The notes beneath the pieces were generated by a model, which ran no database searches, was not told the DNA's origin, and was given only the letters and a program-made list of their open reading frames with translations. A stretch of DNA of 64,000 nt. Source: Gemmatimonadota bacterium (GTDB lineage Bacteria > Gemmatimonadota > Gemmatimonadetes > Gemmatimonadales > GWC2-71-9). Location: assembly GCA_024641745.1 (NCBI GenBank), contig JAHECL010000001.1:29846-93845 (forward strand). The letters are read 5' to 3'. How positions within the stretch are numbered: the first letter of the stretch is position 1; each line of letters opens with the position of its first letter. Of this stretch, positions 35,608 through 54,800 are shown piece by piece. The translations under genes were made by a program, and so were the position numbers.

Positions 35608-35661
35608 GACTCGAGGTACCCCCAGGAAGCTGCCGGCGCCTTGCGCGATGGCGATCGGCTG

Positions 35662-35684
35662 GTGCATATTTACCCATTATGCAC
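35662..35684 (+). promoter_or_regulatory. Candidate ArgR operator (ARG-box-like palindrome) overlapping the argG start codon
   Basis: GTGCATA-N9-TATGCAC, with perfect 7-bp inverted arms at 35662-35668 and 35678-35684. It is the only AT-rich patch in the intergenic region, and its right arm contains the argG ATG (35679). Confidence 0.45.
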
Positions 35685-40106: not shown

Positions 40107-41119
40107 AGCGGGACTTCCTCGCCGTGGAAGACTGGTCCCGCGCCGACGTCGAGTCGCTGCTGTCGCTGGCCGCGCGGGTGAAGCGTGGAGAGATTGACGG
40201 CGGCCTGGAGCGCAAGGTGCTCGCGATGGTCTTCCTCGATCCCAGTCTCCGCACCCGGACGAGCTTTGAGACCGGAATGTTCCTGCACGGCGGGCACGCG
40301 GTGGTGCTGGAGCCGGGGAAGGGAAGCTGGGCGCTCGAGACGGAGGACGGGGTGGTGATGGACCGGGACACCGTCGAGCACGTGACGGAGGCGGCCCGGG
40401 TACTCGGCCGGTACGCCGATGCGCTGGCGGTGCGCGCCTTCCCTCGCGGAAGCGACTGGGCCACGGCCCGACAGGACGCGATCCTGGCGCAGTTCGCGCG
40501 GCACTGCGAGAAGCCGGTCATCAACCTCGAGTCGTCGCGCCGGCATCCCTGCCAGGAACTGGCGGACGCCTTCACCTTGCGCGAGCAGCTCGGCGAGACC
40601 CGCGGGAAACGGTTTGTCCTCACCTGGGCCTGGCATCCGAAGGCGCTGCCCAGCGCCGTGCCGGTGAGTGCCGCCCTCGCCGCGGCGCGGATGGGGATGG
40701 ATGTCACGATCGCCGCGCCGCCGGGCTGCGACCTCGATCCGGAGGATGTGGGCTGCATCGAGGCGCTCGCCAGCGAGGCCGGCGGGGGCAGCGTGACCGT
40801 CGACCACGACCAGGCGGCGGCCATCGAGGGCGCCGATGCCGTGTACGCCAAGTCGTGGGGGCCGGTCTCGCTCTACGGCCAGCCGGAGGCGCAGCGCGCG
40901 TGGTTCGACCAGCATCGCACCTGGCGGCTGACTGACGGACTCATGCGCTCGACCCGCGGCGGGCGCGGCATCGCGATGCACTGCCTGCCGGTGCGGCGCA
41001 ACGTGGAAATCGACGATGCGGTGCTCGACGGCCCGCAGTCGGTGGTGGTGGACGAGGCGGAGAACCGGCTGCATGTGCAGCGGGCGCTCCTCCTCACGAT
41101 GATCGGGAGCAGACGGTGA
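40103..41119 (+). CDS. argF': N-acyl-L-ornithine (acetyl- or succinyl-ornithine) carbamoyltransferase-type transcarbamylase
   Basis: Carbamoyl-phosphate motifs SLRTRTSFE, HPCQELAD and HCLPVRR are present. The OTCase ornithine loop DxxxSMG is replaced by AVYAKSWGPV, as in the AOTCase/SOTCase branch. Confidence 0.8.
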   Translation: MKRDFLAVEDWSRADVESLLSLAARVKRGEIDGGLERKVLAMVFLDPSLRTRTSFETGMFLHGGHAVVLEPGKGSWALETEDGVVMDRDTVEHVTEAARVLGRYADALAVRAFPRGSDWATARQDAILAQFARHCEKPVINLESSRRHPCQELADAFTLREQLGETRGKRFVLTWAWHPKALPSAVPVSAALAAARMGMDVTIAAPPGCDLDPEDVGCIEALASEAGGGSVTVDHDQAAAIEGADAVYAKSWGPVSLYGQPEAQRAWFDQHRTWRLTDGLMRSTRGGRGIAMHCLPVRRNVEIDDAVLDGPQSVVVDEAENRLHVQRALLLTMIGSRR

Positions 41120-42051
41120 GCATCGATACCTCGAAGGGCATCGCTGGACTGAAGGGGGCGCTCCGCTACGTCCGCGCCTATCGCGACCAGGTATTCGTGG
41201 TCAAGCTGGGTGGCGAGGTGCTGGCGGATCCGCGGGCGGTGGACGGGATCGCCGCGCAGGTGTCGCTGCTGTCGAGCCTCGGCATCCGCCTGGTCGTGGT
41301 CCACGGCGGGGGCCCGCAGGCCAGCGCCCTCAGCCGCCGGATGGGGCATGAGCCCCGGATCGTCGCCGGGCGACGCGTCACCGATGATGACGCCCTCGCC
41401 GTGGCGAAGATGGTCTATGCGGGACAGCTGAACGTTGACCTGCTCGCCTCCTTGCGCGCCCACGAAGCCCAGGCCGTCGGGTTGAGCGGGGTGGATGCCG
41501 ACCTGATCACGGCGCACCGCCGTCCGCCGGTGGCGGTGGTGGACGATGCGGGCAAGACCGAGACGGTGGACTACGGACATGTCGGGGACCTGGACCGCGT
41601 CGACCCACGGGTGCTCGTCACCCTCCTCGAGGCCCGCTTCGTCCCGGTCGTGGCCAGCCTCGCCGGCGATCGTGAGGGCCACGTGTACAACGTCAATGCG
41701 GATACGGTGGCGGAATCGCTGGCCGTGGCGCTCCGGGCCCAGAAGCTCATCTTCCTCACCGGGGCGCCGGGGGTGCTGCGTGACCGGGAGGATCCGTCGA
41801 GCCTGGTCGCCTTTGCGGACCCCGACGACCTGGCCAGCCTCCTCGCCAGCGGCGCGGTGGCCGGAGGCATGCGTCCCAAGGTGGAGGCGTGCATCCGCGC
41901 GGCGACCGGCGGCGTCGAGCGCACCCACATCATCGACGGGCGGGTGCCCGATGCACTGCTGCTCGAGGTGTTCACCGGCGCCGGCTGTGGCACCATGATC
42001 GTCGGCCGAAAGGAGAAGGCGACCTATCTCGGCGTCGACCTGGCCGACTGA
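41116..42051 (+). CDS. argB: Acetylglutamate kinase
   Basis: VFVVKLGGEVL, LVVVHGGGPQ and NVNADTVA are AAK-family ArgB motifs. Confidence 0.9.
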   Translation: MSIDTSKGIAGLKGALRYVRAYRDQVFVVKLGGEVLADPRAVDGIAAQVSLLSSLGIRLVVVHGGGPQASALSRRMGHEPRIVAGRRVTDDDALAVAKMVYAGQLNVDLLASLRAHEAQAVGLSGVDADLITAHRRPPVAVVDDAGKTETVDYGHVGDLDRVDPRVLVTLLEARFVPVVASLAGDREGHVYNVNADTVAESLAVALRAQKLIFLTGAPGVLRDREDPSSLVAFADPDDLASLLASGAVAGGMRPKVEACIRAATGGVERTHIIDGRVPDALLLEVFTGAGCGTMIVGRKEKATYLGVDLAD

Positions 42052-42073
42052 AGTCGGGCTCCTCCGGGAGCTC

Positions 42074-43105
42074 GTGGCCATCCCGTCCGTCAGTGGCGAA
42101 GAGGAGGCGGTGGCCCGGTTCGTGGAGACACGCGCCCGCGACTGGGGCCTCGCGGCCGTCCGTGATGCCGCCGGCGTATCCGTGCGCGTCCCCGGCCGGT
42201 CCCCGGGCCGGACGCTGGCGCTGGTCTCGCACCTCGACGTGGTCCCGCCGGGGGCGGGGTGGACGCGGGATCCCTTCACGCCGGTCATCGAGGACGGGCG
42301 GCTCTACGGGCGCGGTTCCGGCGACGCCAAGGCTTCGGTGGCCGCCATGCTGACGGCGGCGTACCGGGTGGCGGAGGCGGGTGGTCCGGAGGTCGGAGAC
42401 CTGCTGGTCCTGCTCGGACTGGGCGAGGAGACGCGGCACACCTCGATGCCCGGCCTCGTGGCGCGTGCCGGCCCCGTCGATGCCGCCATCGTCGGTGAGC
42501 CGACCGACCTCGACTTCGCCGTCGCCCAGCGCGGCCTCATGATGGTGGACCTGGTCGCCCAGGGCGACCAGCGGCATGCCGGTCGGGTCCACGAGGACGG
42601 TCCCTTCACCAATGCCCTCACGGCCCTCGCGCGCGACCTCGTTCGCCTCGAGGGACTGTTCCTCGACCGGCCCCATCCGATCCTGGGGCATCCCACCGTC
42701 ACCGCCACGATGCTGACGGCCGGGGTCAGCCGCAACGTGACGCCACCCTCGGCCAGGGCGGTCCTCGACGTGCGGAGCACGCCCAGCTGGACGCATGAGG
42801 AACTGGCCGAGGGACTTCGCACCGCGCTGGAGTGTGAGGTGGTCGTGACCTCGGACCGGCTGGTGCCGTGCGAAACTCCGCCGGCGTCTGACCTGCTCGC
42901 TGCCTGCGCCGCACTCCGTCCCGAGTCGGTCGCGTACGGGAGTCCGACCTGTTCGGACTGGGTCTTCCTCCGGCACCTGGATGCGGTCAAGTGCGGACCC
43001 GGCAGCAGCCGCCGCTCGCACACCGCCGATGAATGCGTAGATTTGGGTCAGGTGTCCGCCGCGCAGCGGTTGTATGCCGACCTCGCACGGGAGTACCTGA
43101 CATGA
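42074..43105 (+). CDS. argE: M20-family deacylase (acetylornithine / acetylcitrulline deacetylase-like)
   Basis: GTG start with GGGAG upstream. IPSVSGEE, SHLDVVPPG, GRGSGDAKAS and GLGEETRH. Confidence 0.75.
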   Translation: MAIPSVSGEEEAVARFVETRARDWGLAAVRDAAGVSVRVPGRSPGRTLALVSHLDVVPPGAGWTRDPFTPVIEDGRLYGRGSGDAKASVAAMLTAAYRVAEAGGPEVGDLLVLLGLGEETRHTSMPGLVARAGPVDAAIVGEPTDLDFAVAQRGLMMVDLVAQGDQRHAGRVHEDGPFTNALTALARDLVRLEGLFLDRPHPILGHPTVTATMLTAGVSRNVTPPSARAVLDVRSTPSWTHEELAEGLRTALECEVVVTSDRLVPCETPPASDLLAACAALRPESVAYGSPTCSDWVFLRHLDAVKCGPGSSRRSHTADECVDLGQVSAAQRLYADLAREYLT

Positions 43106-44499
43106 CGCGCCGCCGTTCATCCCCGCGCACCCTCTGGTCCCCCTCCGACGACCCCGACCGCCTGATGCTCGATTACACGGTGGGGGAGGATCGGCTGTGG
43201 GACATGCGGCTCCTCGCCTGGGACGTCTACGGGAGCCTTGGACACGCAGAGGGTTTGCGTGCGTCGGGCCTTCTGAGCGCCAGCGCCCATGCCAGGTTGC
43301 GTGCGGCGCTCCGGCGGGCGCTCCGTGAGGTGGAGGAGGGCGTGCTCGTGGTGGACCTCGTGCACGAGGACGCGCACAGCGCGGTCGAGGACTGGATCAC
43401 CCAGCGGCACGGCGTCGACGGGGAGCGGCTGCACACCGGCCGCTCCCGCAACGATCAGGTCGCCTGTGACATCCGGCTCTACCTGAAGCAGCAGCTGCTC
43501 GACCTCCACGAACTGGGCGCCGACGTGGCGGACGCCTTGCTGGCGTTTGCCCGGCAGCATCGCGACGTGCTCTGGCCCGGGTACACCCACACCAGGCGCG
43601 CGATGCCATCCTCGGTGGGACTCTGGGCCGCAGCCTATGCCGAAGGGCTGCTGGATACCCTCGAATCGCTCCCGGCGCTGTGGACCCGGGTGGACCGTTC
43701 GCCGCTGGGCAGCGCCGCGGGATATGGCGTCCCCCTCCCGCTCGATCGCGAGGCGACGGCGCGTGCCCTCGGCTTCGCGGCCGTCGAGCACAACGTGGCC
43801 GCGGTCCAGCTCGGCCGGGGCAAGCTGGAGGCGGCGGTCCTCGCCTGGTGCGGGGAGCTCGGACACGACCTGGCGCGGCTCAGCGCCGACGTCATCCTCT
43901 TCAGCGCCGCGGAGTATGGCTACCTGCACCTTCCGGCCAGGCTGGCGACCGGGTCCAGCATCATGCCGCACAAGCGGAATCCCGATCTCTTCGAACTCAC
44001 CCGCGCGCGGGCGGCCTCGGTCCACGGCGATCATGCCGCCGTGGTCCAGGTCGCGTCGCGCCTGACCGGAGGCTATCACCGCGATTTTCAGCTGGTGAAG
44101 GAACCGCTCTTCCGCGGGGTGCAGCGCACCCGCGAGATGCTCTCGATGCTCGCCGTGGCCATCCCGACGCTGGGCGTCGACGCGGCGCGGTGTGCCTCGG
44201 CCCTGACCGGCGACGCGCTGGCCACCGATGAGGTGATGCACCGGGTCGAGGCGGGGGTGCCGTTCCGGCGCGCCTACCGCGATGTGGCGGCGGAGTTCAA
44301 GGCGGGCGCCCGGTTCCCCGCGCCGAGCCGGCGCGACATGCTGGCGCGGCGGCGCTCCACCGGCGGCCTCGGCAACCTCGGGCTGCCGGCGGTCCGGGCG
44401 CGGGTTCGGGTGCGGCGCACCTGGGGCAGGGGGGAGCGGAGGCGCTTCGAGAGCGCCCTCCGTCGGCTGGCGGGCGGCGGACCGGGGCCGAAACTGTGA
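43102..44499 (+). CDS. argH: Argininosuccinate lyase
   Basis: The ATG at 43102 overlaps the argE stop (ATGA). HTGRSRNDQV, PGYTHTRRAMP and the signature GSSIMPHKRNPD. Confidence 0.9.
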   Translation: MTRRRSSPRTLWSPSDDPDRLMLDYTVGEDRLWDMRLLAWDVYGSLGHAEGLRASGLLSASAHARLRAALRRALREVEEGVLVVDLVHEDAHSAVEDWITQRHGVDGERLHTGRSRNDQVACDIRLYLKQQLLDLHELGADVADALLAFARQHRDVLWPGYTHTRRAMPSSVGLWAAAYAEGLLDTLESLPALWTRVDRSPLGSAAGYGVPLPLDREATARALGFAAVEHNVAAVQLGRGKLEAAVLAWCGELGHDLARLSADVILFSAAEYGYLHLPARLATGSSIMPHKRNPDLFELTRARAASVHGDHAAVVQVASRLTGGYHRDFQLVKEPLFRGVQRTREMLSMLAVAIPTLGVDAARCASALTGDALATDEVMHRVEAGVPFRRAYRDVAAEFKAGARFPAPSRRDMLARRRSTGGLGNLGLPAVRARVRVRRTWGRGERRRFESALRRLAGGGPGPKL

Positions 44500-44948
44500 G
44501 CGGCGACCGGCGGAAGCGCCACCAGAAGATCCTCGAGCTCATCGGCACGCGGGAGCTGCGCACCCAGGAGGAGGTCGCTGCGGCGCTGGCGGAGGAGGGA
44601 TGGTCGGTGACGCAGTCGTCGGTGAGTCGCGACATCGCCGCGCTCCGGCTGGTCAAGGTGGACGGGACCTATCGTCGTCCCGTCCTGGTGGCCCGGCCGA
44701 CAGACGATCCCGACCTCCACCGCATCGCCGCCGCCCTCATCGGCGTCGAGACGGCGGGCGACGCCCTCCTCGTGCTGCACACCCCGCCCGGTGAGGCGAG
44801 CCCCGTGGGGGCCGCGCTCGACCGTCTCGCCTGGGCCGGCGTGGTCGGGACCATCGCAGGGGACGATACGATTTTCGTGGCCGTGCGTGATGCGGCGGCA
44901 CAGCGCGCCGTGCTCCGTGAACTCCGGAAGGTCACCGCACTCCGCTGA
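44496..44948 (+). CDS. argR: Arginine repressor
   Basis: The GTG start overlaps the argH stop. Winged-helix ILELIGTRELRTQEEVAAAL...TQSSVSRDI and the C-terminal oligomerisation/arginine-binding GTIAGDDTIFV. Confidence 0.85.
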   Translation: MSGDRRKRHQKILELIGTRELRTQEEVAAALAEEGWSVTQSSVSRDIAALRLVKVDGTYRRPVLVARPTDDPDLHRIAAALIGVETAGDALLVLHTPPGEASPVGAALDRLAWAGVVGTIAGDDTIFVAVRDAAAQRAVLRELRKVTALR

Positions 44949-45364: not shown

Positions 45365-46372
45365 TCAGCGGATCACCGGCGCTCCGTAGCGGACGGCGGT
45401 GATCTCCGCGAGGATCGCGAGCGCGGTCTCTGCCGGCGACCGTCCACCGAGCGCGAGGCCGATCGGTCCATGCAGGCGGTCGAGCTCGGCCTCCGCCAGG
45501 CCGGCCGTGCGCAGTCGTTCGCGCCGGGCCACCTGGGTCTTCCTCGATCCGATCGCCCCCACATACATCGCCGGTGACCGCAGGGCGATCATCAGCGCTG
45601 GATCATCGAACTTCGGGTCGTGGGTCAGGACCGCGACGGCGGTGGCGGAGTCGATCCCGGCCTTCGCCAGCGCCTCGTCCGGCCACCCCAGGATCAGCTC
45701 GTCGGCGAGGGGAAAGCGGTCGGGCGTCAGGAAGGCCGGGCGCCCGTCGGCGATGATGGTGCGGTAGCCGAGCGCCCGGGCCAGGGGAACCAGCTCGGCG
45801 GCGACGTGGACCCCGCCGAAGACCACGAGCCGCGGTGGTCGGGGAAAGACCTCCAGCAGCACCGCGGTGTCGGCGCCGTCGACCTGCAGGCGGGCGGTGC
45901 GGGACAGCCCGGACCGGAGGGCATCCATCGCGGCGTGCGCGGCCACCGACTCGTCCGTCGTGGTGGCATCGTCGAAGGTCGTAGTGCGACCGATCGCCGG
46001 ACCCTCGAGGACCGTCAGCACCACGGTCCCGCCCGGTCCGCGCGCCGCCTCCAGCACCGCGTCAGGCACCGACGGCTCCACCAGCACCTCCAGTGTCCCG
46101 CCGCACGCCAGGCCCACCTCCCAGGCACGCGCGTCGGAGATCCCGTACCGGACCAGCGCGGGCGTCCCGCGGGCCATCGCCGCCCGGACCTCCTCGGCCA
46201 CGGCGACCTCGACGCACCCTCCCGAGACCGACCCCGCCATGCCGCCCTGCGGCGTGACCAGCATGACCGCCCCCGCCGCCTGGGGCGCGGAGCCCCAGAC
46301 GGCGGCGACGACCGCCCGGCCCACCGGTCCCGCCTCCCGCAGGCGGGCGTAGTCGGCGAGGAGTGGCCGCAT
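45365..46372 (-). CDS. xdhC: XdhC/CoxI-family molybdoenzyme maturation protein
   Basis: N-terminal XdhC_CoxI pattern (VWGSAPQAAGAVMLV...GSVSGGCVE) and a C-terminal Rossmann-like domain (LVVFGGVHVA...). Confidence 0.85.
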   Translation of the reverse strand: MRPLLADYARLREAGPVGRAVVAAVWGSAPQAAGAVMLVTPQGGMAGSVSGGCVEVAVAEEVRAAMARGTPALVRYGISDARAWEVGLACGGTLEVLVEPSVPDAVLEAARGPGGTVVLTVLEGPAIGRTTTFDDATTTDESVAAHAAMDALRSGLSRTARLQVDGADTAVLLEVFPRPPRLVVFGGVHVAAELVPLARALGYRTIIADGRPAFLTPDRFPLADELILGWPDEALAKAGIDSATAVAVLTHDPKFDDPALMIALRSPAMYVGAIGSRKTQVARRERLRTAGLAEAELDRLHGPIGLALGGRSPAETALAILAEITAVRYGAPVIR

Positions 46373-46379
46373 CAGCGCG

Positions 46380-47921
46380 CTAGCGGTTCCGGCCGTACTG
46401 CTCGTGGCTGGACACCCAGTCGGAGGAGGAGATCGCGGACGCCAGCGAGATTTCGCCGGCCAGGACCACCCCGGCGATGATCTCCGCCAGCTTGTTGACC
46501 TTGTTCTTTCCGCGGCAGCCCAGGATGTCGAGCGATTCGCCCTGGGTGGGCAGCCCGGTCCCGCCGCCGTGGGTCGCGATGATCAGTGACGGGATGGTGA
46601 TGGAGAGGTACATGTCGCGGGACTTGGTGAGTTCGGCGTAGAGGATCGCCGCGGACGACTCGGCCACGTTCGCCACGTCCTGGCCGGTGGCGATGAAGAG
46701 CGCCGTGATCCCGTTGGCCGAATGGGCCCCGTTGTTGTTGGCCCCGCTGATGAAGGCCCCGACGTTGGCGACGCCGTGGTGGTAGACCAGGCTCTCCGGC
46801 TCGACCCGCATCTGCTGGATGAGGACATCGCGCGGCACCGTCACCTCGGCCGTCACCCGCTTGCCGCGGGTCCGCATGACGTTGATCTGGGACGCCTTCT
46901 TGTCGGTCGCGAAGTTCGACTCGAGGTAGAAGTGGGCGATCCCGGCGTAGTTGTCGAGGATCCAGCTGCAGGCCGCGAAGGTGGCCCGCCCGACCATGTT
47001 CTGCCCGGCGGCGTCCCCGGTGCTGTAGTTGAAGCGGAGGAAGACGAACTTGTTGGACTGGTACGGATCGACATACTGCAGCCTGGCGACGCTGGAGGTC
47101 GCCTCCGCCTCCTCGCGGATCTTCGGCATCTGCTCGCTCACCCATTTCACGAACTCCCGCCCCGACCGCGCGTCTTCGAAGACGAACACCGGGGCGCGCT
47201 GCATCGCGTCGCCCACGACCGTGCAGCGGGCGCCGCCGGACAGGTTGATGACCTTGATGCCCCGGTTGTAGGACGCGACGAGGGTCCCCTCCGAGGTGGC
47301 CATCGGGACCAGGAAGTCGCCCTTCGCGTGCTCGCCGTTGATCGTGATCGGCCCGGCGATGCCCATCGGCACCTGGGCCGCGCCGATGAAGTGCTCGCAG
47401 TTGCCCTTGGTGAGGTGGGGGTCGAAGGAGTGCTTGCCGATGTGCAGGATCTTGGCGCCGGTCTCCTTCTCGATGAACTCCTGCCGCATCCGGATCGCGG
47501 CCTCGGAATAGTCGTCCTCGGCGTCCCGGGGGATGCGCACCAGGGTGTGGGTCCCCTCCTGGATGGAATCTTCCACGTCGAAGCTCAGCTTGCCGAAGCT
47601 CTTGGTCTTGACCGACAGGGCGATGGTGTGCTTGCCGGGGCCGACCGGGGGGTGCCTGGCGACGAGGGAGAAGACGGTGCCGACGGGGAAGTCGATGGCG
47701 CTTCCCCCGGCAACGGCGTCCGCCGTGACGATCCTCCCTCCGGGCAGGTGGATCGCCACCTGCTCGAGCGGCATCGACGTGCCGTCGATGCTGACCGAGA
47801 GCACCGCCGTGATGTCGACGCTGCTGAGGCGGTTCTTGATGCTGAACCGGACGCCCTGCTCCACGTTCGTCAGGCTGCCCAGGGTGTAGAGCTTCTTGAG
47901 GAGGAGGGTGGGGATGAACAT
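46380..47921 (-). CDS. Class I hydroxymethylglutaryl-CoA reductase with a novel ~130 aa soluble N-terminal domain
   Basis: Catalytic-core motifs align with class I HMGR: TSEGTLVASYNRG (Glu), GDAAGQNMV, TDKKAS (Lys), ATGQDVANV (Asp), HGGGTGLPTQ and SSHEQY (His). Start preferred at the ATG at 47921 (GGAG upstream); the track uses the GTG at 47966. Confidence 0.8.
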   Translation of the reverse strand: MFIPTLLLKKLYTLGSLTNVEQGVRFSIKNRLSSVDITAVLSVSIDGTSMPLEQVAIHLPGGRIVTADAVAGGSAIDFPVGTVFSLVARHPPVGPGKHTIALSVKTKSFGKLSFDVEDSIQEGTHTLVRIPRDAEDDYSEAAIRMRQEFIEKETGAKILHIGKHSFDPHLTKGNCEHFIGAAQVPMGIAGPITINGEHAKGDFLVPMATSEGTLVASYNRGIKVINLSGGARCTVVGDAMQRAPVFVFEDARSGREFVKWVSEQMPKIREEAEATSSVARLQYVDPYQSNKFVFLRFNYSTGDAAGQNMVGRATFAACSWILDNYAGIAHFYLESNFATDKKASQINVMRTRGKRVTAEVTVPRDVLIQQMRVEPESLVYHHGVANVGAFISGANNNGAHSANGITALFIATGQDVANVAESSAAILYAELTKSRDMYLSITIPSLIIATHGGGTGLPTQGESLDILGCRGKNKVNKLAEIIAGVVLAGEISLASAISSSDWVSSHEQYGRNR

Positions 47922-48045
47922 GCGGACGGATCTCCGGGGTCGGGGCGGGCTGGGGTCGGCGGACACCTTGTATCTATCACGGATGCAACGACTTCGCCAG
48001 CAGCCCGGCCGGACAGGCTCCGGGCGTCGCCGGGGGGCCGCGACC

Positions 48046-48102
48046 CCGGATTACCGCAATGCGGCAATCCGGGGTTGACATTTTGCCGCAGTGCGGTATA
48101 TT
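48046..48102. promoter_or_regulatory. Divergent regulatory region: two CCGC-N3-GCGG palindromes around a sigma70-like promoter for phaR
   Basis: A 27-bp near-perfect palindrome at 48046-48072 (CCGGATTaCCGCAaTGCGGcAATCCGG, 12 of 13 pairs). TTGACA at 48075-48080. A second palindrome CCGCAGTGCGG at 48086-48096 fills the 16-nt spacer. TATATT at 48097-48102. Confidence 0.5.
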
Positions 48103-48128: not shown

Positions 48129-48605
48129 GTGCGACTGGTCAAGCGGTACGGCGGCGGAAGCCGAAAACTCTACGACACCGAGGAGAGCCGGTACGTCTCG
48201 CTCGACGAGGTGGCGGTCTGGGTCCGGGAAGGCCAGGAGGTGCAGGTGCTGGAGAGCGGGACCGGGGAGGACGTCACGCGGCAGGTGCTCGCGCAGATCA
48301 TCCTCGAGGGCGAGAAGCAGGGCCGGTCCCTGCTGTCCGTTGACCTCTTTCACGACGTCATCCGGCGCGGGGAATCCGCGCTGCAGGCCCGGGTGGAGCA
48401 GTTGCAGGAAGGGGTGGACCGGCTGATGAAGGCCTCCGTGGACCACCTCCCGCCGGTCCGGGACGCGCGCGACGAAATGGAGGCCCTGCGGGAGGGGATT
48501 GCCAGCCTGGAGGCGGCATTGCAGGACCTCGAAGCGCCGCGGCCCGCGTCCGGCGGGCGCAGGAAGAAGGGGACAACGACCCGGCGTCGCCGGGCTGAGG
48601 GATAG
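48129..48605 (+). CDS. phaR: Polyhydroxyalkanoate synthesis repressor PhaR
   Basis: GTG start with GAGGAGG upstream. N-terminal VKRYGGGSRKLYDTEESRYVSLDEV matches the PhaR DNA-binding motif (IKKYxNRRLYDTxxSxYVTLxDL). A coiled-coil and a basic tail follow. Confidence 0.8.
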   Translation: MRLVKRYGGGSRKLYDTEESRYVSLDEVAVWVREGQEVQVLESGTGEDVTRQVLAQIILEGEKQGRSLLSVDLFHDVIRRGESALQARVEQLQEGVDRLMKASVDHLPPVRDARDEMEALREGIASLEAALQDLEAPRPASGGRRKKGTTTRRRRAEG

Positions 48606-48668
48606 ACGGCAGGCAGTCGTATCGACAAACCCACGGACCGCACCGCGGTCTGACACCAGGAGGACGTT

Positions 48669-49097
48669 ATGGCACGCACCAATCGCAACAGCACCGCCCT
48701 GATGGTCAAGGACAATGCACAGCACATCTGGCTCGCCGGACTCGGCGCGCTGGCCACGGCCGGTGAGGAAGGCAACCGGGTCTTCGAGGATCTGGTCGAG
48801 AAGGGCGCCAAGCTCGAGAAGACCGGTCGGGCCCGCCTGGAGAAGGTGTTGAACAAGGCCCAGGGACGCGCCCGCAGCCTGCGCGGCGACGCGGAAGGCG
48901 CCATCGGCCGCGTGTCCGCCCCGATCGACGCCGGTGTCGCGACCGCGCTCAACAAGCTCGGCATCCCGACCCGGAAGGAAATCCTGGCCCTCACCCGTCG
49001 TGTCGAGGAGCTGACCCGCACGGTGCAGTCCGCCAAGAAGAAGGCGCCGGCCCGGAAGCGCGCCGCCAAGAAGGCGGCCCGTCCGGCGGCCAGGTAA
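48669..49097 (+). CDS. Phasin / PHA granule-associated protein with a Lys/Ala-rich histone-like tail
   Basis: VKDNAQHIWLAGLGALATAGEEGNRVFEDLVEKG ... LGIPTRKEILALTRRVEEL matches the TIGR01837-type granule-associated protein pattern. C-terminal KKKAPARKRAAKKAARPAAR. Confidence 0.8.
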   Translation: MARTNRNSTALMVKDNAQHIWLAGLGALATAGEEGNRVFEDLVEKGAKLEKTGRARLEKVLNKAQGRARSLRGDAEGAIGRVSAPIDAGVATALNKLGIPTRKEILALTRRVEELTRTVQSAKKKAPARKRAAKKAARPAAR

Positions 49098-49108: not shown

Positions 49109-50374
49109 ATGCCCGCCAAGGCAGGGCGCGGCAGGAAACGCCCCCGGATCGGCCTCGCGCTGGCCGGGGGCGGCCCGGAGGGCGCGGTCTACGAGATCGG
49201 CGCCCTCCGCGCGCTGGATGAGGCGCTCGACGGCCTCGATCTGCACCAGCTGGACATCTATGTCGGGGTCAGCGCCGGGGCGTTCATCGCCGCGTCGCTG
49301 GCCAACGACCTGACCACGGCGCAGATGGTGCGCGCCCTGGTCAAGCACGAGGCGGGCGAGCACCCCTTCGTGCCCCAGACGTTCTTCACCCCGAATTATC
49401 GTGAGTGGGCCAAGCGGAGCCTGATGCTGCCCCGGCTCTTTGCCGACGCCATGCTGGAGTTCCGGCGGGGTCCCGAGGAGCAGACCCTCTTCGAGTCGCT
49501 CACCAAGATCTCGCGGGCGCTGCCGGTCGGCCTCTTCGACAACGAGCCGATCCGGCGGTATCTGCAGCGCACCTTCAGCATCAAGGGGCGGAGCGACGAT
49601 TTCCGGAAGCTGCGCCAGCGGCTGATCGTCGTCGCCACCGACCTGGAGAGCGGCCGCCCGATTCTTTTCGGCTCCAGCGGCTGGGACCACGTCCCGATCT
49701 CCACCGCGGTCCAGGCGAGCACCGCCGTGCCGGGATTCTACCCGCCGGTCGCGGTGGAGGGCCGGAACTGCGTAGACGGCATCCTCCTGAAGACGCTGCA
49801 CGCGTCGGTGGCGCTCAAGGACGGCGTCGACCTGCTCCTGTGCGTGAATCCGCTGGTGCCCGCCGACCTGCGGGAAGCGGTGGACGCGGGGCACCTCAAG
49901 GAGGGGGCGCTCATCAAGAAGGGACTCGCCACCGTGCTCAGCCAGACGGTGCGGACCCTCATCAACTCGCGCCTCGAGGTGGGGATGGCGGCGTACCAGA
50001 CCCGCTTCCCCGACTCCGAGGTGCTGCTCTTCCAGCCGGAACGGAACGAGTTTGACCTCTTCTTCAGCAACATCTTCAGCTTCCGGTCCCGTCGGCGGGT
50101 GTGCGAGCTGGCCTATGACGCCACGCGCCGGAACCTGCGCGCACGGCGCAAGACCCTCGCCCCGATGTTGAAGCCGTACGGGATCACCCTGCGGGAGGAT
50201 GTGCTCGACGAGCCGCGGGATCTCTGGAGGAGCGTGGGATTGGATCAGTTCAGCGAGCGGGATCCCGTGACCAGCCAGTTCTCGACGGCGCTCGATGACC
50301 TCGAGGTGGCGGTGACGAGCGAGATGCCGATCCCGCCGGCGTCAGGCGGGCGGGCGCGGGGGACGGGGCGGTAG
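49109..50374 (+). CDS. Patatin-like phospholipase
   Basis: Oxyanion GLALAGGGPEG, nucleophile elbow GVSAG, and the catalytic Asp region CVDGIL. Confidence 0.85.
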   Translation: MPAKAGRGRKRPRIGLALAGGGPEGAVYEIGALRALDEALDGLDLHQLDIYVGVSAGAFIAASLANDLTTAQMVRALVKHEAGEHPFVPQTFFTPNYREWAKRSLMLPRLFADAMLEFRRGPEEQTLFESLTKISRALPVGLFDNEPIRRYLQRTFSIKGRSDDFRKLRQRLIVVATDLESGRPILFGSSGWDHVPISTAVQASTAVPGFYPPVAVEGRNCVDGILLKTLHASVALKDGVDLLLCVNPLVPADLREAVDAGHLKEGALIKKGLATVLSQTVRTLINSRLEVGMAAYQTRFPDSEVLLFQPERNEFDLFFSNIFSFRSRRRVCELAYDATRRNLRARRKTLAPMLKPYGITLREDVLDEPRDLWRSVGLDQFSERDPVTSQFSTALDDLEVAVTSEMPIPPASGGRARGTGR

Positions 50375-51550
50375 CGGGCGGTCGGACAGCCGCCACATGA
50401 AGGCGCCCTGCCGTTGCGCCCGCTCCGCTTTCGAGACGCCGCGGTAGCCGCAGGGCGGTCGCCGGAACATCCGCGCCAGCGTCAGCAGCGGCCACCCGAA
50501 CGGCAGGTAGAACCCGATCAGGTCCCAGTCCCGGAGGATCCGGTGCAGGGCGTTCCGGGCAGGCGGTCGACCGGTGTCCCGCGCCCGGCGCACGAATGAA
50601 ATCGGCCATCCCGTCGGCAGCACCCACCGCAGCTTGCCCCACCCCGCCTTCAGCGCCTCCCAGAGATGCCCCGCATCGTACGGGCGCCTGCCGTGTGTGC
50701 TGACCAGGTCGTCGAGCTGGACCTGCATCTCCTGCCGGACACGTTCCGCCGTGCGCTGGAGGGTGGGGCGGTCCGGTTCTGCGAGGTTGGTGAGGCCCGC
50801 CTGGGTCAGGTACGCCCCGACGTCGATCGGCTCCCCCAGCACGAAGATCGTCCGGGCCGGGAAGGCGAGGTACCAGATCCACGGGAAGATGATGGCCAGG
50901 ATGCCCGCAGGGAGCGGGAGGAACGGCACCCCGAAGAACCGCTGCATCAGCCGGTCGAGCGGCGGGAACACATATCCGAAGGGATTGATCCACTCTGCGT
51001 TGATCATGTAGACCGGGACCACCGGCGTCCGGTGGCGCGCGCAGAGCAGGACGAAGCTGGTGCTGAAGCGCTGCAGCTGATACCGGCGGTTGAACCCCTT
51101 CCCGATGCCCGGCACGCCTTCCGGGAAGTACAGGATCCGGTCGCCGCGGGCGAGCAGGCGGTCGAAGTTGTCGAACAGCATGTCCACACCGCCGCCCCGG
51201 CGCCAGAAATCGTCCAGCCCGAACGGCCGCATCCACCAGGTATACGAGAGTTCCTTCTCGTAGACCGCGCGCAGCTTCCGCGCCGGGTCATAGCCGTCCT
51301 GCCGCCAGAGGGCGGCGTCCAGAATGATCGCGTCATACGGGAAGGCGTTGCCGCTGTGGTTGGCGGCCAGGACGACCGGGCCATCGTCCGGGAGGTTGTC
51401 GCGGCCGAAGATGACCGGCCGGAAGTAGTGGTCCAGCATGGGGCCGAGCACGTCGTCCATCATCATCCGGCTGAACGCGGGGTCGAACGGCTCCCAGCTC
51501 TCGGGAGGTTCCACCGGCGGATCAGCGGGACGGGGGACGTGCCGGCTCAC
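50342..51550 (-). CDS. LPLAT/PlsC-superfamily acyltransferase (atypical motif I)
   Basis: VLAANHSGNAFPYDA and YFPEGVPGIGKGF correspond to acyltransferase blocks I and III. The canonical HX4D spacing is not kept. Hydrophobic C-terminal half. Confidence 0.7.
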   Translation of the reverse strand: MSRHVPRPADPPVEPPESWEPFDPAFSRMMMDDVLGPMLDHYFRPVIFGRDNLPDDGPVVLAANHSGNAFPYDAIILDAALWRQDGYDPARKLRAVYEKELSYTWWMRPFGLDDFWRRGGGVDMLFDNFDRLLARGDRILYFPEGVPGIGKGFNRRYQLQRFSTSFVLLCARHRTPVVPVYMINAEWINPFGYVFPPLDRLMQRFFGVPFLPLPAGILAIIFPWIWYLAFPARTIFVLGEPIDVGAYLTQAGLTNLAEPDRPTLQRTAERVRQEMQVQLDDLVSTHGRRPYDAGHLWEALKAGWGKLRWVLPTGWPISFVRRARDTGRPPARNALHRILRDWDLIGFYLPFGWPLLTLARMFRRPPCGYRGVSKAERAQRQGAFMWRLSDRPLPPRPPRPPA

Positions 51551-51554
51551 AGGA

Positions 51555-53237
51555 TCAGCCGCCTTTGCGGACCGCGAGGACCAGGGCGATCACGAAGAAC
51601 GGCACATACAGCAACCACGCCTGCGGACCCACGAAGCCGAGGATGATGGCGCCGGCCACCAGGGAAAATCCCGCGATGAGCGTTCCGCGCAGCCCCGCGA
51701 AGGGGTTCTCGCTGCTTCGCTTCGCGGTCTTCTCCATGACCCGCAGCCCTTCGGTGATGAGGAGCGGCATCTTGACCAGGGCATCCACAAGGTCGGGCGC
51801 GCCCCGGAGCCCTTCCTGTGCCAGCCGCACCGGGCTGAACTGCTGGATGAACACCCGGCGGACGTGCCGCTTCGACACGTCGGCCACGTCGAACCCCGGC
51901 AGGAGGATCTGCCCCACGCCCTCGAAGGTGACCAGCGCCTTCACCATCAGCACCATCTCCACCGGAAAGAACATCCGATACTGGGCGCCGCGGCTCACCG
52001 ACTCCAGGATGAGCTGCCCGAGGGAGAAGCTGTCGAAATTCGCGTTGCGGCGCCAGCGGCTCGAGACCTCGGCGACGTCGCGCCGGAAGCCGGCCGGATC
52101 GCCCCCGCGCCCCGGTTCGGCGGCGGCCGAGAGGTACCGCGCCGCATTCTCGGCGTCTCCCATCACCAGGGCGTAGTAATAGTAGAGCAGGGTGCGCCGC
52201 AGTTCGTCGTGCATCCGCCCCACCATCCCGAGGTCGATGAACCCCGCCTTGGGGCCCGGCAGCACGATCAGGTTGCCGGGGTGCAGGTCGGCGTGGAAGA
52301 AGCCGTCCTTGTAGATCATCCGGATGATCGCCTCGGCGCCGAGGTCGACCAGCTTCTCGCGGTCTTCCAGCGACATCGCCTGCACCTTGGCCGAGTCCGG
52401 CCGCCGGCCGTCGAAGAATTCCATCGTGAGGACGCGTTCGCCGCTGAACTCACGATAGATCTTCGGGAAGACGATGCCTGGCTCATCGACGAAGTTGGCC
52501 GCGAAGGTCTCCGCATTGTCGGCTTCCCGCCGCAGGTCCACCTCGCGCAGGGTGTATTCGGAAAACTCCCGGATGATCCGCTTGGGGCCGAACCGGGGGA
52601 AGGCGATTTCGAGGACCCAGCCGGCCATCGACAGCAGCCTGGCGTCCCGCCGGAGGATGGCGGGGATGCCCGGCTTGACGGCCTTGATGATGACGGGGTC
52701 GCCGTCCCGGGTGGTCGCGCGGTGCACCTGCCCGATGGAGGCGGACCCGAGCGGCACCTCGTCGATGCCCAGGAACATCTCGTCGAGCGGCCGGCCGAGA
52801 TTTCGGGTGATCAGCTCGCAGAAGACCGGAAAGGGCACCGCCGGCAGCGTGCTCAGGAGGTGCTTGAGCTCCTCGGTGATCGGCTTCGGGAGGATGTCTT
52901 CCCGGAGGCTGAGGATCTGTCCGAGCTTGATGTAGGTGGGGCCCAGGCGCTCGAGCCGCCGGCGGAGCTGCACGGGGAAGGGGAGGTCGCGCAGGCTCCG
53001 GTCGAGGAAGGGCCGGGTGAAGAAGTTGAGCAGCCGCTCCAGCGCGTACCCGAGGCCGCGTCCCCGGAGGGTGCCACGCCGCCCCTCCACGTCGACCGCG
53101 AGCGCGCCGAACACCAGCCCGAAGAGGTGGCGCTGGGTCGTCAGGAACCGCCGGAAGAGGCTCTGCCGTGGCAGGGCCTGGTACACCTCGAAGGTGACGG
53201 CGGCGTCTGGGGCGTCCGCGACGGTGGATGGCGGCAT
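51555..53237 (-). CDS. ABC1/UbiB-family atypical kinase
   Basis: KLGQILSLRED, PLGSASIGQVHRA, FFHADLHPGNLIV and IDLGMVG. Two C-terminal TM helices. Confidence 0.85.
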   Translation of the reverse strand: MPPSTVADAPDAAVTFEVYQALPRQSLFRRFLTTQRHLFGLVFGALAVDVEGRRGTLRGRGLGYALERLLNFFTRPFLDRSLRDLPFPVQLRRRLERLGPTYIKLGQILSLREDILPKPITEELKHLLSTLPAVPFPVFCELITRNLGRPLDEMFLGIDEVPLGSASIGQVHRATTRDGDPVIIKAVKPGIPAILRRDARLLSMAGWVLEIAFPRFGPKRIIREFSEYTLREVDLRREADNAETFAANFVDEPGIVFPKIYREFSGERVLTMEFFDGRRPDSAKVQAMSLEDREKLVDLGAEAIIRMIYKDGFFHADLHPGNLIVLPGPKAGFIDLGMVGRMHDELRRTLLYYYYALVMGDAENAARYLSAAAEPGRGGDPAGFRRDVAEVSSRWRRNANFDSFSLGQLILESVSRGAQYRMFFPVEMVLMVKALVTFEGVGQILLPGFDVADVSKRHVRRVFIQQFSPVRLAQEGLRGAPDLVDALVKMPLLITEGLRVMEKTAKRSSENPFAGLRGTLIAGFSLVAGAIILGFVGPQAWLLYVPFFVIALVLAVRKGG

Positions 53238-53270
53238 CAGGGTCTAATAACCCGCTTCACGAGGGAGAGG

Positions 53271-54800
53271 TCAAGAGGCGGGCGGCTCCGGCAGTTCACG
53301 GGCATAGGCCGGGAAGCGGAATCGCATTTCGGGTCCCAGGATGCCGCCGTGGCCGAGCGCGGCGACCGAGCCGGGGGAGAGCCGCTCCCCGGCCATGATC
53401 CGCGGGAGGAGGAGGTCGGCGGCGGTCGCAAGTCCGAAGGCGCCGCAGCGCGGGAGGCCGAGGAGCTGGGTGTCGCCAAGGCGCGCCAGCCAGAGCATCG
53501 ACCCGGGGTGTGCCGGCACGCCGCGGCGGAAGAGCTCGCCGCCCAGCGACTGCAGCGCGGTGAAGAACGGGGCGAGGGGATCCCCCGCGGAAACGCCGCC
53601 GATCAGGAGGACCCCTGCCCGCCGTCGCACCGCGAGTTCCTCCAGCGCCTCGCGGGCGAGTGCCGCGGCGTCGTCCGGGGAGGGGGCGTCCGTCGCCCTG
53701 ACCCCGAGGAAGCTCCCGCCCAGCGATTCGGCGCGCAGGCGCGACGCGACCTCGAACCGCTCCAGGGCCTCGGGAGCAAGCGCCTCGGTCGCGACGGCGG
53801 CGACACCCAGGCCGGCGTAGGGTCGCACCGCCACCAGGGGGGCGTGGGCCGTCGCCTGCCGGGCGCCCTCGGCCACCGCCGCCTCGGCCACCACGTGGGG
53901 GGCGACCTTGATGCAGGCGACGACCTCCCCTTCCTCCACCGGCTGGTGGTTCCAGCGGGTGAAGAGTTCCAGCGGATCGATGGCGTTGACCGCGTCGATG
54001 CCGGGAAGGGAGAGGGCGAGCACCCCGCGACCGCCGGCGACCAGGTCGACCCGGCCCTGCGTGCCGGCTCGGACGTGGGTGCCGGGCCCCGCGGCGGCGG
54101 CGGCGAGCCGGTGCGCGGCATCGGCCTCGTGCAGTTCGTGCCGGCCGACCCAGGCAAGCCGCACCGGCTCCGGCAGCGCACCGCCGGCCGCCGCGTCGCG
54201 CAGCATCCCGGCCTCGACCGCGTCGAGCCGGTGCCCCTTCGGGAGGCGTCGGTCGGCGAGGGTGACCCCGCCGAGGAGGACGGCGCCCGGCAGCGTGTCC
54301 GGCGGGATGGAGAGCAGGCCGGCGGCGTCGAGCCGGTAGGCGCCGCTGGGTGGCGCCGCGGCGAGCGTCGTGGCGACGTTGGCCCAGAACCGTTCGGTGA
54401 ACTGCCGCAGCGTCTCCTCGACCATCCCGCGGCCGAATCCCGCGAGCATGCCGTGGACGGCGGTCACCGAACTCCATTCGAGCCGGGTGCGGTCGGCGTC
54501 GATCAACTCGAGACGCACCAGCGTCTCGACATCCAGCGTCGAACCGGGGGCGGTGCCGGTGGCCCGCAGGCGGAGGCGCTCGGGGTGATGCAGGTCGTGC
54601 AGCTCCGCCTCCAGCACGACGTGCACCCGGACCAGTCCGGAGCCGACGCTGCACTTCACCGAGTACCGTCCCGGCCCCCGGACAGTGAAGGACTCCGCCC
54701 CCGGCGTGCAGGCCGCCATCGTTTCCCCGTCCTGCAGGTGCCGCCAGACTGCCTCTCGCGGGGAGGTGAGTTCGGGGGATCCGCCAAATTCGAAGATCAT
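53271..54800 (-). CDS. Fusion protein: CoxG/SRPBCC domain + MoeA-like molybdopterin-binding domain
   Basis: The track ORF is trimmed to the ATG at 54800 (MIFEFGGSPEL), which overlaps the mocA-like stop (ATGA). The N-terminal ~140 aa is CoxG-like. The C-terminal LLIGGVSAGDPLAPFF...FRRGVPAHPGSMLWLARLGDTQLLGLPRCG resembles the MoeA/MoCF-binding domain. Confidence 0.65.
   Translation of the reverse strand: MIFEFGGSPELTSPREAVWRHLQDGETMAACTPGAESFTVRGPGRYSVKCSVGSGLVRVHVVLEAELHDLHHPERLRLRATGTAPGSTLDVETLVRLELIDADRTRLEWSSVTAVHGMLAGFGRGMVEETLRQFTERFWANVATTLAAAPPSGAYRLDAAGLLSIPPDTLPGAVLLGGVTLADRRLPKGHRLDAVEAGMLRDAAAGGALPEPVRLAWVGRHELHEADAAHRLAAAAAGPGTHVRAGTQGRVDLVAGGRGVLALSLPGIDAVNAIDPLELFTRWNHQPVEEGEVVACIKVAPHVVAEAAVAEGARQATAHAPLVAVRPYAGLGVAAVATEALAPEALERFEVASRLRAESLGGSFLGVRATDAPSPDDAAALAREALEELAVRRRAGVLLIGGVSAGDPLAPFFTALQSLGGELFRRGVPAHPGSMLWLARLGDTQLLGLPRCGAFGLATAADLLLPRIMAGERLSPGSVAALGHGGILGPEMRFRFPAYARELPEPPAS

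Follow-up and report, generated by a model that had tools for sequence, protein, structure and literature searches.

We analyzed a stretch of 64,000 nucleotides from an uncultured bacterium of the Gemmatimonadales (Gemmatimonadota; contig JAHECL010000001.1; hereafter the window) that encodes, on its reverse strand, an HMG-CoA reductase (HMGR; HMG-CoA, 3-hydroxy-3-methylglutaryl-coenzyme A), and we found that the most constant genomic partner of this gene is a gene for an ABC1/UbiB-family kinase, not PhaR. The enzyme is a class I HMGR in which a beta-sandwich domain precedes the catalytic domain. An earlier reading of the same DNA, made from its letters alone (hereafter the sequence-only reading), had taken it for a reductase of a 3-hydroxyacyl-CoA pool linked to storage-lipid or polyhydroxyalkanoate (PHA) metabolism. 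The explanation that we favor, with moderate confidence in it as a whole, is a genuine HMGR in a kinase and lipid gene set with a role in prenyl-lipid metabolism. The protein is a soluble class I enzyme that would form mevalonate, with the beta-sandwich probably acting as an assembly or docking module on a probably flexible linker. The core of the gene set is HMGR and one specific ABC1/UbiB-family kinase, often with an acyltransferase; in some lineages, genes for a patatin lipase, phasin and PhaR-like regulator also belong to it. Such a set may supply or control a mevalonate-derived (prenyl) lipid in coordination with lipid-body or membrane-lipid turnover. In the window, palindromes of the PhaR type would serve autoregulation of phaR, and HMGR would have a conserved promoter of its own, from which xdhC is probably transcribed as well.

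A class I reductase with an invariant HMG pocket

In our listing of open reading frames (ORFs), the gene appeared as a GTG-started frame of 528 amino acids at 46380-47966 (reverse strand). Its homologues, close and distant, are 507–517 amino acids long and begin MxIP (MFIP in the window protein), and in an alignment of the upstream DNA of 14 related genomes the boundary of conservation falls exactly at the ATG at 47921. We therefore place the start at this ATG, giving a protein of 513 amino acids, in agreement with the ORF of the sequence-only reading (46380-47921). An exact look-up of the protein returned no identical record. Genes were called by a simple procedure that in a few cases wrongly chose long ORFs on the antisense strand (e.g., 51438-55004), and such ORFs were left out.

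The catalytic domain matched PF00368 (HMG-CoA_red) over profile positions 2–368 of 368 (E 2.8e-127; 425.2 bits against a gathering threshold of 27). Among NCBIfam models, TIGR00533 (class I, NADPH) gave 349.2 bits and TIGR00532 (class II, degradative) 37.5 bits. The closest solved structures are all class I: 6hr7 (E 5.6e-79), which together with 6hr8 we take to be an archaeal HMGR, followed by the Arabidopsis and human enzymes. Class I entries of the PDB spanned E values of about 1e-79 to 1e-58, and class II structures reached 1e-7 or weaker. The protein is thus class I rather than class II, as had been proposed, and its identity as an HMG-CoA reductase is well supported.

We mapped residues through HMMER alignments to human HMGR (1dq8) and Arabidopsis HMGR1. 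The motifs named in the sequence-only reading (TSEGTLVAS, TDKK, GQDVANV, SSHEQY, GDAAGQNM and HGGGTG) are all present and align to the human and plant enzymes. The catalytic set comprises Glu211 (human E559, in TSEGTLVAS), Lys341 (K691, in TDKK), Asp415 (D767, in GQDVANV) and His506 (H866, in SSHEQY). Arg220 (R590), Asp340 (D690), Lys342 (K692), Lys354 (K735), His400 (H752) and Asn403 (N755) are the counterparts of further residues which, together with K691, presumably bind HMG in the published human structures. Across 52 family members from several phyla, with a mean column identity of 80%, the counterparts of E559, R590, D690, K691, K692, K735, N755, D767 and H866 are invariant and that of H752 is nearly so. 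The chemistry would accordingly be expected to consist of two NAD(P)H-dependent reductions that carry the HMG-CoA thioester to mevalonate with the standard Glu/Lys/Asp/His set. Because the HMG pocket is invariant, the changed acyl substrate that had been suggested, another 3-hydroxyacyl-CoA, is unlikely.

Linkage to one ABC1/UbiB-family kinase holds in both directions

A scan of species-representative genomes with HMGR gave 531 confirmed relatives, of which the best 80 loci were retained. Gene order is identical in relatives at 84% identity and in all 14 close Gemmatimonadales loci, each of which carries the full gene set (14/14). Of 21 Acidobacteriota loci, 14 have an ABC1 gene within 10 kb of HMGR, and in 12 of them it follows HMGR immediately downstream on the same strand. 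An ABC1 gene is equally close in seven of eight other Gemmatimonadota loci, in the KSB1 locus, where all five HMGR partners are present, and in two of 11 Bacteroidota loci; some Calditrichota also have the kinase gene beside HMGR. These neighbors are orthologues of the window kinase, with full-length identities of 57–60% (Thermoanaerobaculia), about 50% (Longimicrobia) and 47% (KSB1). Orthologues of the acyltransferase occur near HMGR in Longimicrobia, KSB1, Calditrichia, Cytophagia and Flavobacteriales (34–53% identity), and orthologues of the patatin, where present, share 41–58% identity.

Outside the close group, a PhaR-like gene lies within 10 kb of HMGR at seven loci in five lineages (two Acidobacteriota and one each of Thermoanaerobaculia, Longimicrobiaceae, KSB1, Calditrichia and Cytophagia). 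These counts come from first-round phmmer only; a second-round hidden Markov model was drawn to antisense ORFs by the Arg/Ala-rich tail of the protein and was discarded. In Aridibacter, the PhaR-like gene is 127 bp from HMGR and near a WS/DGAT wax-ester/triacylglycerol synthase gene. A Pfam census of 201 flanking ORFs at 31 diverse non-Gemmatimonadales loci, in which singletons beyond the top 25 families were not enumerated, was headed by ABC1 (5), AMP-binding acyl-CoA synthetase (5), phasin (4) and ArsA-type ATPase (4), followed by PHB_acc_N (3), WS_DGAT (2) and patatin (2). All-versus-all clustering of ORFs from 83 loci produced one giant junk cluster of high-GC antisense ORFs and served as a lead only.

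For a reciprocal test, metagenomes were scanned with the window kinase, HMGR was sought on the kinase contigs, and informative contigs were counted by eye. HMGR was present on 6/6 informative contigs for kinase relatives with at least 80% identity, which have the Gemmatimonadales arrangement, and on 22/28 for relatives at 50–70% identity with at least 600 bp upstream, where it lies mostly directly upstream on the same strand. The two tiers together give 28/34. For kinase relatives at 31–42% identity, which are other ABC1 paralogues, the count was 0/25. These reciprocal counts show that the linkage is specific to one kinase subfamily and holds both ways. Genomes carry just a few ABC1 genes each. 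The storage-lipid connection put forward by the sequence-only reading thus recurs across phyla, with an ABC1/UbiB-family kinase as its core partner. We found no report of a multi-phylum, bidirectional linkage between HMGR and a kinase in the literature.

At one locus (L027:8690-9862), an ArsA/Get3-type ATPase gene with a C-terminal HSP20-like domain stands directly upstream of HMGR on the same strand. Comparable ArsA/Get3 genes hold the same position and strand relative to HMGR at other Longimicrobia and Rhodothermales loci (L028, L041, L047, L055, L057, L073, L079 and L085).

The N-terminal domain is related to a deglycosidase subunit

The sequence-only reading had described a new, apparently beta-rich N-terminal domain. 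The domain is indeed there and beta-rich, about 120 amino acids long: an AlphaFold2 (AF2) model of residues 1–140, built on a 53-sequence alignment, has ten strands, is nearly all beta, and reaches a mean predicted local distance difference test score (pLDDT) of 87.8, with a low-confidence, probably flexible linker after the domain (residues 121–139). The domain is not new. The Pfam scan of the window matched PF25653 over its whole 115-position profile (111.6 bits against a gathering threshold of 27, E 4.1e-32), and a large protein collection holds more than 8000 proteins with the PF25653 + PF00368 architecture, many annotated 'hydroxymethylglutaryl-CoA reductase (NADPH)'.

The domain also has solved structural relatives. 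As a single sequence, the N-terminal 139 residues matched no solved chain. The 17 best Foldseek matches of the model in the PDB were all C-glycoside deglycosidase (CGD) beta subunits or fused forms of them (E 1e-7 to 1e-4), with 8qvc_B at the top (E 1.4e-7, template modeling score 0.63–0.74, identity 20–22%), and a profile of the family matched DgpB1 (9m3b_B, E 7.8e-6) and chains with DUF6379 (E 2.7e-4). As the sequence profile and the fold agree, homology to the CGD beta subunit is supported, at superfamily level only; the Pfam family of these subunits, PF19906 (CGDB), gave 14.8 bits (E 0.026) on the window domain, below its gathering threshold of 27.6. In CGDs, the partner is a TIM-barrel protein of the sugar-phosphate isomerase type. 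No AP_endonuc_2-type gene, encoding such a catalytic partner, was detected among the window ORFs by Pfam scan. By analogy with the CGD subunit, we infer that the N-terminal domain is an assembly, docking or regulatory module and neither a membrane anchor nor a second active site.

A search of residues 1–140 against 1.84 billion cluster representatives gave 482 relatives. Some are complete stand-alone proteins of 118–122 amino acids, mostly from Anaerolineae (e.g., P0214 and P0298; loci L088-L093), that show a second, sub-threshold Pfam match to PF19906. Their gene contexts in Anaerolineae (ribosomal S15/PNPase, URO-D/FGGY, radical SAM) are not conserved and are uninformative on function. Some sources annotate these stand-alone proteins as HMG-CoA reductase, and at one locus (L090) the gene is two genes away from a mevalonate decarboxylase-like gene.

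Distribution and descent of the subfamily

The subfamily is widespread, very strongly conserved, already catalogued in Pfam and functionally uncharacterized. Among the best 80 of the 531 relatives, those at 80–93% identity are all uncultured metagenome-assembled genomes (MAGs) of Gemmatimonadales/Gemmatimonadaceae. A tier at 64–70% comprises Longimicrobia, Roseiflexaceae, Herpetosiphonaceae, Anaerolineae, Caldilineae, Thermoanaerobaculia, other Acidobacteriota, Cytophagia, Saprospiraceae, Rhodothermales, Calditrichia and KSB1, so that the phyla represented are Gemmatimonadota, Chloroflexota, Acidobacteriota, Bacteroidota, Calditrichota and KSB1. We found no report on this HMGR subfamily, on its N-terminal domain or on isoprenoid pathways in Gemmatimonadota in the literature.

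In a rough neighbor-joining tree of the catalytic domain, the family sits on a long stem apart from 6hr7 and the plant and human enzymes and has a shallow crown in which most phyla are coherent. In this rough, non-robust tree, the Gemmatimonadales sequences fall beside Aridibacter-type Acidobacteriota and not beside Longimicrobia, and on account of this grouping an old transfer between phyla is likely, although the tree only hints at it. The question of horizontal acquisition raised by the sequence-only reading thus divides: the older transfer is hinted at, and a recent transfer into the host genome was rejected. The G+C content at third codon positions (GC3) of HMGR is 0.96, the highest among the window ORFs, and its local GC content is ordinary and window-like, so the gene is not a recent arrival; synteny is moreover stable in the relatives at 80–93% identity.

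A KSB1 MAG carries a second, truncated HMGR copy about 1.9 kb downstream of the full-length gene (L023:13407-14432). In this copy, the N-terminal domain is followed by no more than the first 153 catalytic-domain positions; a pseudogene, a frameshift or an artefact of assembly could account for it.

The region between HMGR and phaR

The divergent arrangement of HMGR and phaR noticed by the sequence-only reading is kept in 14 genomes. The intervening DNA had been described as filled with palindromes; conservation in the 14 relatives extends to just two of them, both located on the phaR promoter. Their 17-bp consensus (TTGCCGCAnTGCGGCAA) has three matches with up to three mismatches in the window against 0.41 expected, the third being remote, at 63632. 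Both palindromes and the phaR promoter are kept in 14/14 relatives. Palindromes placed over a regulator's own promoter are the layout expected for PhaR autoregulation from studies of PhaR in other bacteria.

On the HMGR side, a block about 45–80 bp upstream of the ATG contains an extended -10-like element (TGATAGATA) at 47971-47979 and is probably the HMGR promoter, judging from its conservation and position. The spacer between this block and the phaR promoter is GC-rich and varies in length and sequence among relatives, and the other inverted repeats, also GC-rich and probably those noticed by the sequence-only reading, lie within it and are not conserved. No operator copy was found over the HMGR block or before the phasin gene in the window, save a one-mismatch core at 48638. 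With operators only on the phaR promoter and a conserved block of HMGR's own, control of HMGR by PhaR, as once proposed, is possible only at a distance and is not indicated. The HMGR block (CTGGCGAAGTCGTTG...GTGATAGATACA) is near-invariant in the 14 genomes and, besides a promoter, could hold a binding site for a regulator.

Gene neighborhood

The features of the locus are collected in Table 1. The kinase gene is followed by the acyltransferase gene on the reverse strand; the PhaR-like, phasin and patatin genes lie on the forward strand; and HMGR, then xdhC, are on the reverse strand, divergent from phaR. Pfam confirmed the xdhC, PhaR-like, phasin and patatin neighbors listed in the sequence-only reading. 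The patatin and acyltransferase genes overlap at their 3' ends. Since only 8 nt separate HMGR and xdhC on the same strand, the two are probably co-transcribed; xdhC is found near HMGR only in the close Gemmatimonadales group, and the adjacency is lineage-specific. The kinase scored below the TIGR01982 cutoff, which makes it an ABC1-family paralogue and not UbiB proper, and its C-terminal tail, inspected by eye, is hydrophobic and may span the membrane.

Table 1. Features of the HMGR locus, in window coordinates.
Feature	Coordinates	Strand	Evidence and remarks
HMG-CoA reductase coding sequence	46380..47921	-	513 amino acids, class I, PF25653 + PF00368; Pfam, NCBIfam, homologue lengths, upstream alignment
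HMG-CoA_red_N domain (PF25653), residues 7-121	47559..47903	-	Pfam E 2.3e-33; AF2; Foldseek 8qvc_B; profile match 9m3b_B
Linker, residues 122-139	47505..47558	-	pLDDT 60-67 in both AF2 models; low confidence
Catalytic domain, residues 143-511	46389..47495	-	PF00368; alignments to 6hr7, 8ecg, 1dq8; invariant columns in 52 homologues
Promoter-like block upstream of HMGR, CTGGCGAAGTCGTTG..GTGATAGATACAAGG	47966..48000	-	Near-invariant in 14 Gemmatimonadales loci, flanks variable
Palindromic operator 1, TTACCGCAATGCGGCAA	48051..48067		Just upstream of the phaR -35 hexamer
phaR promoter, TTGACA-16-TATATT	48075..48102	+	Sigma-70-like, 11/12 consensus; 1 site against 0.0 expected
Palindromic operator 2, TTGCCGCAGTGCGGTAT	48083..48099		Between -35 and -10, overlaps the phaR -10
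xdhC-family maturation factor	45365..46372	-	Pfam, NCBIfam; start 8 nt after the HMGR stop
PhaR-like regulator	48129..48605	+	PHB_acc_N DNA-binding domain only, Pfam E 3.7e-22; TIGR01848 88 bits against cutoff 109.45
Phasin-family protein (PF05597)	48669..49097	+	Pfam E 1.6e-31
Patatin-like lipase	49109..50374	+	Pfam E 4.1e-25; orthologues at 57-58% identity near HMGR in Thermoanaerobaculia
PlsC-type acyltransferase (PF01553) with long C-terminal extension	50342..51550	-	Pfam
ABC1/UbiB-family atypical kinase	51555..53237	-	Pfam ABC1 E 9e-61; TIGR01982 307.8 bits against cutoff 487.55

Several further observations concern the surroundings. The PhaR-like proteins of the window and of a related locus (L005:11678-12148) have PHB_acc_N only and score below the equivalog level, with no PHA synthase nearby; what they regulate may be neutral-lipid bodies and not polyhydroxybutyrate (PHB). 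An arginine-biosynthesis string (argG, an unassigned ORF, argC, argD, argF-like, argB, argE-like, argH and argR; 35517-44948) ends just before the HMGR region and is kept in relatives. Beyond the kinase, a 649-aa ORF on the reverse strand (53271-55220) has a CoxG/SRPBCC match at residues 148–286 only and an Arg/Pro-rich N-terminal stretch, and its start is probably over-called; at loci L001-L003, an NTP_transf_3 gene is called directly upstream of the kinase in its place. Together with xdhC, the CoxG/SRPBCC and NTP_transf_3 genes suggest that molybdoenzyme maturation genes are scattered around the cluster. Farther away on the reverse strand (20279-25098), a 972-aa ORF for a Ser/Thr protein kinase precedes one for a BTAD/AAA_16 protein of the transcriptional-activator type, the two ORFs overlapping as called.

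Mevalonate-pathway genes and alternative explanations

Pfam scans of the approximately 55 window ORFs detected no enzyme of the mevalonate or methylerythritol phosphate (MEP) pathway; what they did detect includes genes for arginine biosynthesis and an operon for cytochrome oxidase, besides transporters and regulators. Beside HMGR, no HMG-CoA synthase, mevalonate kinase, phosphomevalonate kinase or decarboxylase, or isopentenyl diphosphate isomerase was present in the 64 kb, which bears out the sequence-only reading on this point. Likewise, none of the 83 related loci has a mevalonate diphosphate/phosphate decarboxylase homologue within 10 kb, and no mevalonate-pathway family recurs in the Pfam census of 31 loci, where isolated singletons are possible. 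HMGR is not part of a mevalonate operon. In Hoshino and Gaucher (PMC6107057), HMGR-II is among the Chloroflexi mevalonate enzymes analyzed, and the reference myxobacterial class I sequence has an accession far from that of the mevalonate genes of the same organism. In the main text, neither Gemmatimonadetes nor Acidobacteria is mentioned, a weak negative. These points are consistent with the subfamily being an extra or stand-alone reductase.

Several observations weigh against the prenyl-lipid explanation. The TIGR00533 score is below the trusted cutoff of 441.8, which makes the window HMGR a member of a divergent subfamily and not of the curated equivalog. The cis-loop is Glu334-Ser335-Asn (ESNFATDKK), against Ser684-Gly685-Asn in human HMGR; in place of the DAMGMNM of characterized class I enzymes, the first cofactor motif is DAAGQNM, the second being HGGGTG; and a Ser occupies the position aligned to human Arg627, which presumably contacts the 2'-phosphate of NADPH. 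Judged from the aligned residues, cofactor preference or fine specificity could differ as a result of these three family-specific differences, which do not suggest another acyl substrate. For the arrangement of the domains, the full-length monomer AF2 model is only moderately confident (pLDDT 76), and its cis-loop and C-terminal helix are poorly modeled; the latter is expected, because both are completed by the partner subunit in HMGR dimers. ABC1 and the lipid genes are near HMGR at none of the 20 Chloroflexota loci and are absent from most Bacteroidota loci, so coupling of HMGR to the kinase is not universal. We found no functional study of any member of the subfamily, and its activity, cofactor and reaction direction are read here from conserved residues. 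Finally, if the genome truly is without a lower mevalonate pathway, mevalonate would have no known fate.

Re-tasking of HMGR to another 3-hydroxyacyl-CoA (3-hydroxybutyryl-CoA or acetoacetyl-CoA from a PHA or storage pool), under PhaR control and outside isoprenoid synthesis, would fit the way in which genes of the PhaR-like, phasin, patatin, WS/DGAT and acyltransferase kinds recur near HMGR, the absence of mevalonate genes nearby, the changes in cis-loop and cofactor motifs and the persistence of the phaR-divergent arrangement. We nevertheless consider it very unlikely. The residues that hold the HMG carboxylate and 3-hydroxyl in human HMGR all have conserved counterparts, and a pocket of this kind fits a C6 hydroxy-dicarboxylate but no monocarboxylic acyl chain, whether short or long. 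PHA synthase, ketothiolase and acetoacetyl-CoA reductase were all absent from Pfam scans of the window, PhaR operators occur only on the phaR promoter, the PhaR-like protein falls below the PhaR equivalog cutoff, and the kinase, not PhaR, is the most constant partner.

The gene might instead be the housekeeping HMGR of a mevalonate pathway whose other genes lie elsewhere in the genome, its lipid neighbors being meaningless. Intact catalytic machinery under very strong purifying selection, a GC3 typical of a well-adapted native gene and the unrelated HMGR contexts in Chloroflexota are in line with this, as is the occurrence of the subfamily in Chloroflexota and Bacteroidota, the phyla to which most bacterial mevalonate genes are reported to belong (PMC6107057). 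The two-way linkage to an orthologous ABC1 kinase in several phyla is, however, hard to ascribe to chance. Moreover, the Chloroflexi HMGR-II in that paper, which does not discuss the subfamily, suggests that the class I protein is additional there, and the silence of its main text on Gemmatimonadetes and Acidobacteria counts weakly on the same side; on balance, we regard a housekeeping role as unlikely. There is also little to recommend the oxidative direction, in which HMG-CoA would be formed from mevalonate, or from a related diol acid that stored or scavenged lipid releases, and would pass on to acetyl-CoA and acetoacetate. The catabolic class II HMGR of Pseudomonas mevalonii runs in this direction, and the window gene is an orphan with respect to mevalonate genes in the window and in 10-kb flanks. 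The Ser at the Arg627 position may relax the preference for NADPH, if the Arg has the role we take it to have, and catabolic genes (patatin lipase, acyl-CoA synthetase, acyl-CoA dehydrogenase and thiolase) occur near HMGR at some loci. Yet the class I HMGRs known to us work biosynthetically, neither an HMG-CoA lyase nor a mevalonate transporter was seen adjoining HMGR, and class I enzymes are described as using NADPH exclusively (PMC13488460).

Significance and comparison with described systems

By itself, the window HMGR is an ordinary member of a catalogued, functionally uncharacterized family. What seems to be unreported is an HMGR tied in both directions, across four or five phyla, to one orthologous ABC1/UbiB kinase and to lipid-storage genes, in a subfamily that is unusually conserved (64–70% identity between phyla). 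That HMGR and the adjacent kinase form a functional pair not described before is a proposal that we make tentatively, and it is more probably wrong than right. In its strongest version, the kinase/ATPase would regulate HMGR or exchange prenyl-lipid intermediates with it, at a lipid body of the acyltransferase, patatin and phasin, with the N-terminal domain docking the reductase. To our knowledge, it has been unclear for decades what ABC1/UbiB proteins do biochemically, and a conserved two-gene unit with a well-understood enzyme would offer a simple experimental handle on it. The pair, if real, would be a bacterial counterpart of the kinase-controlled eukaryotic HMGR, and could exist in lineages that otherwise use the MEP pathway. 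Such a unit would also pose the question of what purpose mevalonate has in phyla that are generally assumed to depend on the MEP pathway. The linkage, a genomic inference, may be of interest for the biology of UbiB/ABC1 proteins, bacterial isoprenoids and lipid droplets.

The solved class I HMGRs (6hr7/6hr8, human 1dq8 and Arabidopsis 8ecg) share with the window protein a catalytic domain homologous from end to end (E 6e-79 to 1e-59), including its Glu/Lys/Asp/His set, its HMG pocket and its C-terminal His helix. They differ in front of this domain: the window protein has the beta-sandwich, 6hr7 has no extension, and the eukaryotic enzymes have a membrane domain. They differ also in having SGN, DAMGMN and Arg627 where the window has ESN, DAAGQN and Ser, and the window protein stands on a long separate branch. 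Within the PF25653 + PF00368 reductases, in contrast, it is a member with the same architecture and length, at 64–93% identity, and no structural difference. Orphan class II HMGRs (Burkholderia cenocepacia, Delftia acidovorans and Pseudomonas mevalonii) are likewise encoded away from mevalonate biosynthesis, but belong to the other class, lack the N-terminal beta-sandwich and have a different context. Class II HMGRs use or prefer NADH (PMC13488460).

The beta subunit of C-glycoside deglycosidases (DgpB, CarC/DfgB; PF19906 CGDB, DUF6379) shares fold and sequence homology with the N-terminal domain of the window protein. It has been solved in complex with a second subunit and can be fused to its partner (8un2_A). 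The active site belongs to this partner, the small subunit being non-catalytic. In the window, by contrast, the domain is fused to a reductase of unrelated fold, with no sugar-metabolism genes nearby.

Like the PhaR/PhaP regulon of PHB granules in Cupriavidus necator and Paracoccus denitrificans, the window has a PHB_acc_N regulator followed by a phasin, and palindromic TGC/GCA-rich operators over the regulator's own promoter. Unlike that regulon, its PhaR-like protein is below the equivalog cutoff with no second PhaR domain detected, and the window contains no phaC, phaA or phaB. Its companions are instead a lipase, an ABC1 kinase and an acyltransferase, which points to bodies of neutral lipid and not of PHB. 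Lipid droplets of cyanobacteria contain ABC1K kinases, a DGAT-like acyltransferase and prenyl-lipid enzymes (PMC12223511), and HMGR did not appear in the examined parts of the droplet proteome table. ABC1K-bearing droplets (plant plastoglobules and cyanobacterial cyanoglobules) bring together kinases of the ABC1/UbiB family, an acyltransferase, a coat protein at the surface and enzymes of prenyl-lipid metabolism (PMC12223511). The evidence there is proteomics in phototrophs, whereas here it is gene neighborhood only, in non-cyanobacterial phyla; the ABC1K-bearing lipid droplet is the nearest described analogy to the gene set of the window.

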